NCBI GenBank assembly: GCA_016699105.1
Contig: CP064960.1
Span: forward strand, 264,727 to 328,726
Source: a bacterium
GTDB lineage: Bacteria; Patescibacteriota; Saccharimonadia; UBA4664
Reading direction: 5' to 3'
Length of the DNA stretch: 64,000 bases
Shown here: piece by piece, positions 45,619 to 60,045 of the stretch
Layout: every line of letters starts with the position of its first letter
Numbering within the stretch: the first letter of the stretch is position 1
Translations under genes and position numbers: made by a program
Notes under the pieces: generated by a model
What the model saw: the letters and a program-made list of their open reading frames with translations, nothing else
Told to the model about the DNA's origin: nothing
Databases searched by the model: none

Positions 45619-47129
45619 TCAGCTCATATTTAATAATTGGCGGGCTAATTGTTTGCCGAGTTCAACGCCGAACTGATCAAATGAATTGATATCCCAGATG
45701 GAACCTTGGACGAACACGCGGTGTTCGTAGAGGGCAATGAGCTGTCCGAGAGTATCGGGTGTCAGCTGGGGAGCATCATGGTATTGCTGGGGCGATTTCC
45801 GGAGAAATTCAGATGTGGTTGCTGAGTGTCTAAATTACCGAAGGCTAAGGCTTCAGTCTGGGCCTGTAAATTGGCCAGCAGTTTGCGGTGATGATCCACT
45901 AAAGGCCAGAGTGGTTCTGCAAAACCAATGAAGTCGGCTGGAACAAAGGGCGTGCCTTGGTGCAGCAGCTGGTTGACCGAATGTTGACTGTCGGTACCTG
46001 GTACCCCCCAAACAACCGGAGCAGTAGCGTAGGTGATAGCTTGACTATCGCGGGTGACTGACTTGCCGTTTGATTCCATGACTAACTGTTGGAGATAGGC
46101 GGGGAAGCGGTGGAGATACTGCGCATACGGCAGAATTGCCAGACTCTGAGCGCCCCAAAAATTGATATTCCAGATATCAATGAGGCCAAGAATGACTGGT
46201 AGATTTGATTCGAGGGGAGTGCTTACAAAATGCTGATCAATTTTTTGGAAGCCGTTGAGAAAATCATCAAAGTTATCTGGTCCGATGGCGATCATCAGAC
46301 TCAAGCCGATGGCTCCCGGTAACGAATACCGGCCGCCGACCCAGTCCCAAATCTTAAACGTATTGGCCGGGTCAATGCCGAAATCTTGGACGGCGGCAAT
46401 ATTGGCAGAAATAGCCACAAAGTGTTTGGCCACGGCAGATGGCGATGTATGGTGATCCAGGAGCCACGTTTTGGCACTGGCAGCATTGGTCATGGTCTCG
46501 TCGGTGGTAAATTTCTTGGACGCGACGATGAATAACGTAGTTTCGGGATCGGCAGTTCGCAAAGCCTCACTCAGATGTGAGCTGTCGACATTGGAGACAA
46601 AATGGAAGGTCAAATTACGGCGAGTATAAAATTTGAGTGCCTCGTGAGCCATAGCTGGACCAAGATCGGAACCGCCAATACCGACATTGATAATCGTTTT
46701 GATGGCTTGGCCGGAATGGCCGACATGGCTGCCATCCCGAACGGCAGTGGCAAATGTCCGCATGTGCTGCAAGCCAGCACTGACGTCGGGCATCACATTA
46801 TGCCCGCCTACTATCAACGGTTGGTCAATTGGCCGTCGCAGGGCAGTGTGGAGAGCCGGCCGCTTTTCAGTGAGATTGATCGGTTTACCTGCAAACATGG
46901 CGTCGCGCTGGCTCTCGACATCACAGGTGCGGGCGAGCTTGAAAAGTAACTCGAGGGATTCGGAATTCAGGCGGTTTTTGGAGTAATCAAGATGAATGTC
47001 TGCTGCTTGGGCGGCAAAAGTTTGGGTTCGATTGGAGTCTTCGGCAAAAAGTTGGCTGATAGGTGTAGATGCCAGCGATTGTTGGTGCTTTGCTAATGCT
47101 TGCCAGGCTGCTAAGTCGGTGAGATTCAT
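45619..47129 (-). CDS. pgi: glucose-6-phosphate isomerase, C-terminal frameshift near 45790-45830
   Basis: The 455-aa ORF (45762..47129) has PGI motifs ('[12 protein letters not shown]', '[12 protein letters not shown]'). After the ORF stop the next frame continues '[47 protein letters not shown]', the conserved PGI C-terminus, ending at ~45619. Confidence 0.85.
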
Positions 47130-47728
47130 GCATTTAGCTTAGCATGGAGAGGCTTTCGATTGGGTGAGCCAAGGATACTATATGCTAATACGATATTGAT
47201 TATCACGAGATACGCTGGAAAAGCGAACGCCGAAAATGTCCACGCAGTTATCGCGGTAAAGCCAGTCAAAGCGTTAAAAGTTGATAACACAAACGGTGTG
47301 GCGGACTCGGTATGAGGGTGATACCAAGCTTTAATTATGGTTGGAGCAGCGGCTAAAGCGTCGCTAGCAATCGCAAAAATAATAGCAACTTCAGGGTTTT
47401 TAGTTATGCCCCAGAGTACGAGCGCCAATACTGCTAGGAGTCCACAACTATAGTCTAGTCGTCCAAGTTTCCAATATGCTTGGCGATCGATAAATGAGGC
47501 CAATAGCACTAATAATGGACCAAAGCCAGATATAAATACCGGTAATACAGCCCAAGTGACACCATTTGAAATTGCAGCAAAGGTTGCAATGAGAGGGGCT
47601 ACTGACCACAAAAGCCAGGTCATTCGATTAGGCCTGGTTTGTCCCCGTAATGTATCGCGGATGTAGATGGAGATGGCCGCGAGCTGGATAATTGCTCCGA
47701 TGATCACCAATATTGGACCATAGATCAT
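47126..47728 (-). CDS. hypothetical membrane protein (5-6 TM helices)
   Basis: 200 aa, strongly hydrophobic. Confidence 0.3.
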   Translation of the reverse strand: MIYGPILVIIGAIIQLAAISIYIRDTLRGQTRPNRMTWLLWSVAPLIATFAAISNGVTWAVLPVFISGFGPLLVLLASFIDRQAYWKLGRLDYSCGLLAVLALVLWGITKNPEVAIIFAIASDALAAAPTIIKAWYHPHTESATPFVLSTFNALTGFTAITAWTFSAFAFPAYLVIINIVLAYSILGSPNRKPLHAKLNA

Positions 47729-47767
47729 GGCTTTTCCTTATTTGCGAGTTGTAAGTAAATAATTCCT

Positions 47768-57003: not shown

Positions 57004-57311
57004 TCGTATCCATGTTACCTGTCGGCGAACCCTCGGTGGTTGGTGAACTCAGGTACGGCATTTTAATTTTCCTGGTGAAGCCGATTAGAGAAGTTTCCAG
57101 TTACGCGTTGTTGAAGCATATGATTAGCCCCAATCCCAGAGAGGCAGCATTTAGTGATGGACGTATGAGCGCCCAAGATTCAGCAGCGGTCAAGCTTGCC
57201 CACAGATGATTCTGGACAAGATTCGTAAGCGGTAGCTTGAAGCGACGCCACCAAATCGCGCTAAACCGCTAGATACGAGCAAGTTATGCCTCCCGTATAA
57301 AATACGAGTGT

Positions 57312-60045
57312 TCATGTTCTAAAATATTTGTCCCCTAGTTTTGGAGTGCTTTGAGTTGTTTCGCCTAGGGACGCTCTGCTTTGCTGACGGGTATTGATGA
57401 GGCGGTCGCGGGTTTCGGCGACGACAGCTTCAGGAGCGTTTTGAACATATGCTTTGTTGTCGAGTTTGGCGGTCAAACCTTTGGTATACGATTGTTTTTC
57501 GTCGAGTTGGAGCTTGAAGCCGGTGCTGACGGGCGGCAATGAGAGTATCGTCGGCTTCGATCCAGGCGGGAACGCTCGTGCCAAGGTAGAGGCCAGTCCC
57601 CTTTGCTCGCGAACTCGACTTTGCCAAGCTTACCCAAGCGGATGAGGAGTTCGGTGGAATCGGTGAGTTGTTTGGCGGTGGTGATGAGCGTAGGTTTGCA
57701 AGTTGTTCTTCGCCGCAATGGTACGGGTTTTTTGGACTAGATCTTTGATGGTTTCAAATCGTTCAGATAGTTTGGTTTGTGTTCTTGTAGTGTCCACAAC
57801 AGTTGGCCAGGCAGTTGTAATGAGTAAATCGTGGCTGTGCCAAGGCATTTCTGACCAAATACCGGTGACGAACGGCGCGATTGGGTGAGCCAATTTGAGG
57901 ATAGTCTCGGAGTGCAGCAACGAGCAAGTCATGGTTGGGGGACACTTTGAGGCTTCGATATACCAGTCGGCAAAATCATCCCAGAGCAGTGAGTACACGG
58001 TCTGGCCAGCTTCGGAGAAGCGATAGTCTTCGATAGCTTGAGCAACCGAGAGCGTGGCGGCATCCGTCTTAGTTGCAACCAGTGATCAGCAGGGGAGTTG
58101 AGCTGGGGCGTAGCGGGGAGCAATCATCGGGCAACTGACCCAAGATGAAGCGGGCAACATTCCAGAGCTTGTTTACAGAAATTGCGATAGCCCCTGATTT
58201 TGCGCGCTCGGACAACGGTCCGTCATTGCCGGCGGTAATACCGATAGTAGCGGGCAAGGCGAACAGCGTCGGTACCATATTTGGCGGTTACCGCGAGGTT
58301 GAGGACATTTGCTCTTGGACATTTCTTGCCGTGGCACGGCATTCATGCCGTGGAGATAGACGGTCCGGAAGGACTTCGTCTGGTGTTCATGACTTGGTTT
58401 TAAACATGCCAAACATGATCATGCGAGTGACCCATAGGTATAAAATGTCGCGCCGGTCCTTATGACGCTGGTGGGGTAGAAGCTGGGCTGCCCATTCGTG
58501 GGGTCAAAGTCGCCGGTGGCCAGCGGGAGGGTGGCGTAGGGCCATCACGGAGCTAAAACCAGGTATCGAAATTACCGGTTTCAGCCTTCGTAGCCGTTTG
58601 GTCCATACAGGGCTTTGGCGTCAGCTTCGGTGCCGATGATGTACTCGGGCAATGATTGATCGATGGAGCGGTTGTATGACCGGCACGCGGATGCCCCACC
58701 AGTTTTGGCGGAGATATTCCACCGCGTAAGTTTTCGAGCCAGTCGAGGGCCGACTTGGTAAACCGCTCGGGAACAAATGTGATCTCGCCGATTTGATGGC
58801 GGCAATGGCCGGTTTTTGAGCTCATCGGACACGCAACCACCATTGTTCGACGGTGAGCGGCCTCATGAGGGCGCGCAACGATCGTGGAAGCCTGGCGGAG
58901 TGTGTGTGTAATCGAATCTTCGACATGATCGACTCAGCCCGCGGAACTTCGAGGTCGCGGAAAGACCTGTGTGCGCGTCGGGCCACTGGCATGTTGGCGT
59001 AGCGACCAGCGAAAGTTCGGTGAGGAGGCAGCCGTCGGTGCCGATAACCTGTTTAACTACCAAGTTGTGGCGGAGGCCACTTGGCCGTTGGGGCCGTGGG
59101 CGGGGTTATTCATGGCGCCGGTGCCAAAGGCCGGGTCGATGTGGTGGTCGCCAATGACGTTGAGCTTGATGGGTCCATTGAGGTCTTCGGCTTCGATGGT
59201 GGTACCAATGAGGTGCTGGCAGCGCCTGTCTTCGGGTGGACGGCAATGGCGGTGTCGCCGAACTTGGTTTCAGGCCGGACGGTGGGCTGTGCACGAAGGG
59301 GACCGTACTTGACGTAGTAGAGCGGGTCGGTTTGTTCGCGATATTTGACCTCAATATCGGCGAAGGCAGAGAGCGGCAGAAGGGACACCAGTTGACGATG
59401 CGGGTTACCGCGGTAGATATAGCCGGCGTCATGTAACTCTTTGAAGGTTTCGTAGACGGTTTTTACAATCTTGTCGTCAAGGGTGTAGGTAAGGTGCGAC
59501 CTAACTCACCCAGAAGCCCAGCGATTTAACCTGAGCGATCATGTTGCTCATGTTGTCTTTGGTAAATTGGTCGACTTGACGGTAGAATTCATCGCGGCCG
59601 AGATCGAAGCGATTTCCGGCTCTGCTTTTCGAGGAGGCGCTCGTAGACGACTTGGGTTTCGATGCCGGTACGGTCAGCGCCAGGAGCCAGAGGTGGGGTG
59701 ACCTTACGTGGCGGTAACGGATCATCAGATCCTCGATGACGAAACATAGCGTGGCCCATGTGGAGGTTACCATTGGCGTTGGGCGGTGGCATGATGATGG
59801 TAAATGGTCTTTGCGGGTAGTAGAATCTCTCGAAACGCCTCCCCTCACGCTGGCGAACGTCGTCTTCTCTTCGAGGAGCTTAACTATCAGAACCCACACC
59901 CGCTTGTTCGGTCGGCATTTCCTTCGACGCTACTCGCAAATGCGCATTGCCGTCTGTGGTGAAGGCGCTGGCGTCCTCCCACTTGGTGTAGAGTTTGGAT
60001 TCGTATTTTTGCGGATCGTAGGCTTTATCGAGCTGGTGGCTCATG
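57312..60045 (-). pseudogene. valS: valyl-tRNA synthetase, interrupted by at least 8 frameshifts (essential gene, so assembly errors are more likely than true decay)
   Basis: Pieces in order: 'MSHQLDKAYDPQKYESKLYTKWE' (start 60045); 'PPPNANGNLHMGHA' (HIGH region, 59589..59792); 'TTRPETKFGDTAIAVHP' (59110..59388); 'FDTWF' and 'LDWLENL' (58553..58843); 'NKLWNVARF' (58069..58278); 'DDFADWYIE...KLAHPIAPFVTGIWSEMP' (57630..57998); C-terminal coiled coil (57312..57584). Good SD 'gaggaaa' before the ATG. Confidence 0.8.

Follow-up and report, generated by a model that had tools for sequence, protein, structure and literature searches.

Broken valS, pgi and glycosyltransferase genes in a Saccharimonadia metagenome-assembled genome probably reflect consensus errors of a hybrid assembly

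The DNA considered here is a stretch of 64,000 nucleotides (nt) of the contig CP064960, a Saccharimonadia genome, and this whole stretch is called the window in what follows. Within it the valyl-tRNA synthetase gene (valS), pgi and three genes of a glycosyltransferase region are broken into many reading frames, and an initial annotation, made from the sequence alone, left the choice between assembly error and genome decay. From sequence comparison it is very probable that these broken genes are consensus errors of a hybrid Nanopore/Illumina metagenome-assembled genome (MAG), and not mutations carried by the organism. We read the damage as assembly error because independent assemblies of the same species carry every gene intact at the same locus, and because the insertions and deletions (indels) of the window are private to it and the source pipeline was an unpolished, low-coverage Unicycler hybrid. 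The indels belong to one assembly and are blind to gene boundaries, and the documented pipeline included no short-read polishing. On this reading the damage is no biological feature; valS, pgi and the glycosyltransferase cluster are ordinary and intact in the organism itself. Thus of the two alternatives left by the initial annotation, assembly error is upheld by the intact same-species loci and the private indels, and decay is not.

Results

Independent assemblies carry the genes intact

What do these loci look like in other genomes of the same species? The comparators were reached by way of an open reading frame (ORF) of 466 amino acids (aa) at 55,603-57,003 of the window, of which the 404-aa protein QQR52881.1 (locus IPG36_02070) is exactly residues 63-466. 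A search with this ORF led to a 561-aa protein that is 99% identical and whose 90%-identity cluster has 11 members. In all, 15 contigs from other metagenome assemblies (ENA, NCBI and Logan) were compared, with DNA identities to the window of 92-99%. Eleven of them (L003-L013) cover 44.8-64 kb; the other four (L014-L017), which were reached via VirB4 and are 97-98.6% identical, cover 19-40 kb. The names of the contigs are mostly in the style of SPAdes or MEGAHIT, pointing to short reads. No related locus turned up when GTDB species genomes were scanned with the 466-aa ORF, and exact-protein look-ups with the inositol-phosphatase-like ORF of the window, DnaN, QQR52881.1 (P0124) and the helix-turn-helix (HTH) ORF described below gave no match.

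The 15 contigs keep the gene order of the window, and in them each gene is a single ORF. At 44.8-64 kb the intact proteins have lengths of 503 aa (PGI), 454 aa, 531 aa (the GT2 glycosyltransferase), 534 aa, 561 aa and 906 or 894 aa (ValS), and to the right of valS of 321 aa (HATPase), 103 aa (DUF4325), 333 aa, 141 aa and 310 aa (GerE). At 19-40 kb the corresponding lengths are 629 aa for VirB4, 1239, 1076 and 534 aa for three further proteins, 353 aa for RecF and 260 aa for the sortase. When 44.8-64 kb of the window is aligned with its eleven comparators (12 sequences), 158 indel events are found only in the window, against four indel polymorphisms among the other eleven sequences. At 19-40 kb there are 22 window-only events, against no indel differences among the four comparators. 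None of the frameshifts was found in any of the 15 independent contigs, none of which comes from the identical strain. In the DNA comparison with these relatives, the gene lengths of the window are conserved despite the indels.

A dense stretch with sharp edges

The heaviest damage forms a continuous stretch at 56,997-62,850, with genes on both strands, where 116-117 window-only indel events fall within 5.85 kb. This is about 20 events per kb, with a median spacing of 35 nt and a longest event-free run of at most 310 nt. Deletions of 1 nt (39 events) and insertions of 1 nt (34 events) make up most of the spectrum, the rest being of 2-6 nt and none larger than 6 nt. All four bases are hit, and enrichment in homopolymer runs is weak. 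The stretch covers six genes on both strands together with their spacers, at a similar density throughout (13-36 events per kb per gene), and the spacer between valS and the HATPase gene itself has two window-only events. Balanced indels of 1-2 nt with a weak homopolymer bias are what one expects of near-raw reads and not of a deep consensus, and the dense stretch resembles the consensus of one or a few raw reads.

The left edge of the dense stretch is abrupt. Before it lies a clean segment, 54,800-56,996, with no window-only indel in 2.2 kb and substitutions of at most 0.5%; counted over 54,773-56,996 there are no events, followed by 11 in the next 300 nt, and the switch is localised to about 25 nt. 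The switch lies inside the hypothetical gene for the 561-aa protein (55,603-57,300, plus strand). Codons 1-465 of this gene contain no indel and are intact, at 99% identity to the short-read versions, whereas codons 466-561 contain 11. From 56,998 on there are at least nine frame changes within 96 codons, with the onset at 56,997-56,998. Two earlier views of this region were abandoned. The 466-aa ORF at 55,603-57,003 had been taken for an intact gene within the damaged zone; it is the first 465 codons of the 561-aa gene. The damage had also seemed to coincide with valS and so to be gene-specific, a hint of biology; it is a continuous stretch that starts inside the 561-aa gene.

To the right of valS the dense stretch continues through an HATPase_c-like gene (60,290-61,242, plus strand; 16 window-only indels), a DUF4325 gene (61,246-61,550, plus strand; four) and the phosphoribosyltransferase-like gene for the 333-aa protein (61,591-62,582, minus strand; 21). 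It stops exactly where homology to the relatives is lost for 385 nt, across 62,847-63,232. An open 130-aa ORF lies at this edge (62,793-63,185, minus strand), with matches to the Pfam families HTH_23, HTH_32 and LZ_Tnp_IS481. It consists of the HTH N-terminus of an IS481/IS3-type transposase in frame with the final 17 codons of the 141-aa gene known from the relatives, and is either a real insertion sequence (IS) remnant or a chimeric join; its exact product is not on record elsewhere by exact-protein look-up. Beyond this segment the gene for a GerE/LuxR-type regulator (63,314-64,000, plus strand) is clean again, with 96% amino-acid identity in a single frame, the sole indel being an in-frame 3-nt difference.

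The valS gene

The valS gene (57,335-60,044, minus strand), which is intact in the relatives, contains 57 window-only indel events, and 50 of the 57 are not multiples of 3 nt by DNA comparison with the same-species assemblies. The initial annotation, which placed the gene at 57,312-60,045 and split it into at least eight frames, was right about the breakage and understated it. Recognisable pieces of valyl-tRNA synthetase are spread over all three minus-strand frames at 57.3-60.0 kb. Plain tblastn could not resolve these frames, and a frameshift-aware protein-to-DNA dynamic-programming aligner was written. With this aligner, 36 frame changes are counted over 852 aligned residues against the nearest outside ValS (L001), and 39-55 against a profile of 111 ValS sequences, the count varying with the frameshift penalty. 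The stop codons in these alignments adjoin frameshift sites or fall in an unaligned N-terminal insert, and are avoidable by other placements of the shifts. When the pieces are stitched by hand, the resulting query places in the Saccharimonadales (Candidate Phyla Radiation (CPR)/Patescibacteria), with best outside relatives about 67% identical.

Is the damage confined to indels? A four-way alignment of valS gives 51 gap events private to the window, where each of the other sequences has 0-1 of its own; private substitutions, by a looser count, number 195 in the window and 3-23 in the others. The private substitutions that are well flanked (n=142) fall on codon positions 1, 2 and 3 in the numbers 42, 32 and 68, while the natural differences between the other strains fall 18, 10 and 66. 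This spread over codon positions implies that some 60% of the valS private substitutions (about 85, or ~3% per nucleotide) would be random noise, and some 40% natural divergence. Non-synonymous changes private to the window number 76 in valS, and not one of them introduces a stop codon. Of the near-invariant ValS columns, defined by conservation in at least 97% of homologues, the window retains 91%, while each of the 111 real homologues retains 96-100%; there is therefore substitution damage besides the indel damage. Ten changes at invariant ValS residues had hinted at an AT-to-GC bias, which was not upheld, as the 142 substitutions are roughly symmetric transitions.

Several features of valS stand apart from the damage. 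Relative to the ValS of other Patescibacteria there is an insert of about 42 aa (window ~59,790-59,920) between the N-terminus and the HIGH motif. This insert was at one point suspected to be junk; it is also present in the short-read assemblies and hence is real. An in-frame indel of 36 nt distinguishes the valS genes of the strains and accounts for the two protein lengths of 906 and 894 aa. Artefacts of the same kind occur in other Saccharimonadales records: a C9 run splits valS in the NVSMB39 MAG (L001, 4,690-4,720), and in the ENA contig_75509 (L002) several genes are in two or three pieces.

Sparser errors in the rest of the window

Elsewhere the indels are fewer. The pgi gene (45,619-47,129, minus strand) has just one: a run at about 45,766-45,769 (plus strand) has lost 1 nt and reads G4 in place of the G5 of the intact gene. 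This deletion truncates the C-terminus, where the initial annotation had placed a frameshift, and the Pfam PGI match runs from position 1 to position 420 of a 486-position profile. The left neighbour of pgi (44,023-45,604, minus strand; 527 aa in the relatives), compared over its 3' part at 44,773-45,604, has four window-only indels, at 45,104, 45,431, 45,477 and 45,563, which leave ORFs of 351 and 73 aa (comparators L004 and L005 only). Given these four indels, 45.08-45.6 kb is therefore coding and not intergenic.

The three genes at 50.7-55.3 kb, which had been described as split three or four times each, show 3-5 visible frame changes apiece. They are the gene for the 454-aa membrane protein (50,751-52,112, plus strand), with five window-only 1-nt indels; a GT2, or cellulose-synthase-like, glycosyltransferase gene with a match to Pfam Glyco_tranf_2_3 (52,063-53,653, minus strand), with nine 1-nt indels; and the gene for a PMT_2/CHIM_prot-like membrane glycosyltransferase of 534 aa in the relatives (53,707-55,305, plus strand), with seven indels. 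The count for 50.9-54.8 kb is 21 events, a density of 5.3 per kb, and two thirds of them (14/21) are 1-nt deletions.

The sparsest damage is that of the region with type IV secretion system (T4SS), sortase and recF genes (19,273-40,187), where the 22 window-only indels are spread over 20.9 kb, or about one per kb. All but three of the 22 are 1-nt deletions, many of them in runs of 4-6 nt (T5, G4 or A4). The genes that are split in this way are those of VirB4 (T5 run at 30,826), the 1239-aa protein (28,152 and 28,576), the 1076-aa and 534-aa proteins and the sortase. Hence the shifts that had been reported in VirB4, the sortase and the large T4SS proteins are there, as 1-nt homopolymer deletions relative to intact relatives. 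A shift reported in a DUF721 gene is not: the gene next to recF (~22.3-22.6 kb), to which the initial annotation gave that family label, has no window-only indel. It was also correctly stated that some genes are whole, as comparison with NCBIfam models shows dnaA, dnaN and recF at full length, and the rhs-like ORF of 2446 aa runs without a break. These sparse zones show the classic Nanopore signature, and the proposal that the shifts arise at short homopolymers holds for them; it does not hold for the dense stretch, with its weak homopolymer association.

Seen over the whole window, the longest open frames collapse at about 50.7-63 kb, where the median longest stop-free stretch is 0.3-0.6 kb, against 0.8-7 kb elsewhere. 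The suspicion of a low-coverage region or contig end was close in spirit to what is found; the pattern, however, is a mosaic of clean and dirty segments with no gradient toward an end. Homopolymer run-length spectra are alike in the clean and dirty parts, with no sign of homopolymer compression. A reference-free, frame-tracking hidden Markov model (HMM; 3-periodic Markov, Viterbi) was tried and dropped as a measure of density, as it took 4-nt gene overlaps for shifts; it caught the sparse shifts, but reported seven events in the dense zone where homology shows more than 50.

Discussion

The source assembly and a possible origin of the errors

The contig CP064960 is the MAG Aved_18-Q3-R54-62_BAT3C.16_uni from Danish activated sludge (Singleton et al. 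2021, Nat Commun 12:2009, PMC8012365). It is one circular contig of 1,322,297 bp, assigned to Saccharimonadia, order UBA4664, genus UBA5169, with a coverage of 7.44x for Illumina (ilmcov) and 14.72x for Nanopore (npcov) (PMC8012365, Supplementary Data 3), and it is listed as a circular, high-quality species representative, with a CheckM completeness of 65% and a total polymorphic rate of 0.0088 (PMC8012365). The MAGs with the suffix '_uni' are Unicycler reassemblies made with the flags --no_correct --no_pilon --mode bold, and further polishing with Racon, Medaka and Illumina reads is described solely for the Flye circular contigs (PMC8012365, Methods).

How might such a pipeline produce the pattern that we see? 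At about 7x Illumina depth the short-read graph would be fragmentary, and the finished contig would be a Unicycler mosaic. The exact segments, for example 54.8-57.0 kb and 63.3-64 kb, would be short-read contigs, an assignment that we infer. Other segments may have been filled with a consensus of several Nanopore reads, leaving residual errors that are mostly 1-nt deletions, at about one per kb (19-40 kb) or about five per kb (50.9-54.8 kb). The 5.9 kb at 56,997-62,850 would then be a bridge built from very few reads, with ~2% indels and ~3% substitutions, the latter estimated in valS, and valS would be damaged by the accident of lying inside this low-read bridge.

This proposal has precedents, with differences. 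Nanopore indel errors are known to split proteins, and similarly 1-nt homopolymer deletions break conserved genes at 19-40 and 50.9-54.8 kb; moreover, the indels of the window are absent from the short-read assemblies of the species, and the source study used Nanopore reads. The stretch at 57.0-62.85 kb differs from an ordinary residual Nanopore consensus in being far worse (~2% indels, and ~3% substitutions in valS) and in its weak tie to homopolymers. Like unpolished Unicycler hybrid mosaics, the window switches sharply from segments free of errors to segments full of them and back, at an Illumina depth of 7.4x. A difference is that the dirty segments are taken to be bridges from their appearance, and that the long-read-type errors at 19-40 kb suggest an unusually large share of bridges.

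Some points weigh against reading the damage as assembly error. The stretch at 57.0-62.85 kb was judged from assembled sequences and not from read coverage or per-base support. The equation of clean segments with short-read contigs, and of dirty segments with long-read bridges, follows from how the errors are distributed and from the published Unicycler flags; the assembly graph did not enter into it. The comparators come from one or more other strains, with a natural divergence of 1-8% that varies by segment, and in principle the strain of the window could differ from them. At 44.8-50.9 kb and 61.6-64 kb the comparison draws on a single comparator lineage, where 'window-only' cannot separate errors from natural indels. 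A small part of the differences of the window could conceivably be real strain biology amid the errors, such as the HTH fusion at 62.85-63.23 kb and an 850-nt insertion at 49.0-49.9 kb. The boldest version of this thought, in which the strain is in fact losing this valS locus and relies on a further copy of the gene, strikes us as highly improbable.

Alternative explanations

Could the genes be decaying in earnest, with the lost functions taken over by the host or by another gene copy in the genome? In favor of decay, Saccharibacteria are host-dependent and have reduced genomes, and host-restricted, pseudogene-rich bacteria such as Mycobacterium leprae and Sodalis offer a model in which many adjacent genes, housekeeping genes among them, are interrupted, as they are here. 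The loss of 9% of the near-invariant valS residues would fit decay, as would the transposase-like fragment at the right edge of the damaged stretch, and real insertions do distinguish strains of the species, the 850 nt at 49.0-49.9 kb being an example. Nevertheless we consider genuine pseudogenisation very unlikely. No independent assembly of the species shows any break at the locus, and the damage starts in the middle of a gene, 1 nt after 1.4 kb at 99% identity, which leaves no time for ~3% neutral substitutions and 2% indels to accumulate beyond that point. Six adjacent genes are hit equally densely. Natural decay in bacteria is dominated by substitutions and biased toward deletions of widely varying size. 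In the window, insertions are about as frequent as deletions, almost all are of 1-2 nt and none exceeds 6 nt, and no stop has been made by substitution; valS has ~57 indels against ~85 random substitutions, with a reported indel-to-random-substitution ratio of ~1:1.7. The lesions thus depart from those of pseudogene-rich genomes in being private to one assembly and blind to gene boundaries, in being nearly all balanced 1-2-nt indels without substitution-derived stops or large deletions, and in striking an essential gene, valS, that is intact in genomes of the same species and has no second copy within the 64-kb window. A search of that window found no duplicate of the damaged region, no second valS and no repeats linking the zone elsewhere. 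A decaying duplicate, which the initial annotation had suggested, does not agree with this result, nor with damage that begins at codon 466 of the 561-aa gene.

A chimeric or mixed-strain consensus, in which diverged, co-occurring strains were merged or a mis-join was made at a repeat or IS, would still be an artefact, and it is an unlikely main cause that may be a contributor. The total polymorphic rate of 0.0088 for the MAG (PMC8012365) speaks for a mixture of strains, and valS is naturally variable, with a nucleotide diversity of 2-4% in several bins. On its right the dense stretch ends at a non-homologous segment that carries a transposase-type HTH, and about 40% of the window-only valS substitutions resemble natural third-position divergence. 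One would think, however, that merging two intact alleles should give mosaics of substitutions, and not ~2% random indels of 1-2 nt. At 60.5-61.5 kb the other assemblies do not differ from one another at all, and yet the window has nine indels per 500 nt there; therefore the density of errors does not track natural diversity. As for recoding by the organism itself, through insertion/deletion RNA editing or dense programmed frameshifting, the sole observation in its favor is the continued homology to ValS through every change of frame. The events go in both directions, involve all four bases and 1-6 nt, share no common motif, and occur also in the spacer between valS and the HATPase gene; random substitutions accompany them, and the same genes are ordinary uninterrupted ORFs in genomes of the same species. 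We give recoding practically no credence.

Consequences for use of the record

If the damage is assembly error, as we favor, then the CP064960 record has kilobase stretches near raw-read quality and about one homopolymer deletion per kb elsewhere, and comes with a warning about data quality. Lost marker genes may contribute to the CheckM completeness of 65%. Errors of this kind inflate counts of pseudogenes, and would mislead analyses of gene loss, metabolic capacity or selection in Saccharibacteria that use the record. The per-gene error map given above tells which gene calls in the window are trustworthy.

Other features of the window

The gene for the 561-aa protein is of interest in its own right. 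The protein has no Pfam match, and its only other relatives are 38-44% identical. The nucleotide diversity of the gene is 0-0.14% over 11 assemblies from different samples, while the flanking genes have 2-4%. This near-invariance could reflect a recent sweep or transfer.

An 850-nt stretch of the window, 49,027-49,877, is absent from both comparators that cover it (L004 and L005). An ORF of the inositol-monophosphatase family (49,048-49,923) lies on this stretch, just downstream of a tRNA-Ser(cga) gene at 48,809-48,898, and the stretch may have been inserted at a tRNA gene in this strain only, or may stem from an assembly join. Together with a tRNA-Ser(tga) gene on the opposite strand (47,769-47,856), the tRNA-Ser(cga) gene forms an inverted repeat of 83 nt at 86% identity, and the pair flanks a gene for a 191-aa protein and a tRNA-Arg gene. 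A window-only deletion of 2 nt, at 47,774, falls within tRNA-Ser(tga).

Where might the replication origin lie? The dnaA gene is at 15,973-17,346. GC skew is positive (~+0.12, G > C on the plus strand) across the whole window, 1-64,000, and there is no change of sign beside dnaA to mark an origin; the skew is the same on both sides of dnaA-dnaN-recF, whatever the orientation of the genes. Finally, downstream of the rhs-like ORF (6,156-13,496, minus strand) part of its own sequence recurs in diverged repeats (within 2,500-13,500), among them 300 nt at 78% identity and a 38-nt motif present three times. By analogy, these repeats appear reminiscent of orphan toxin-tip cassettes.

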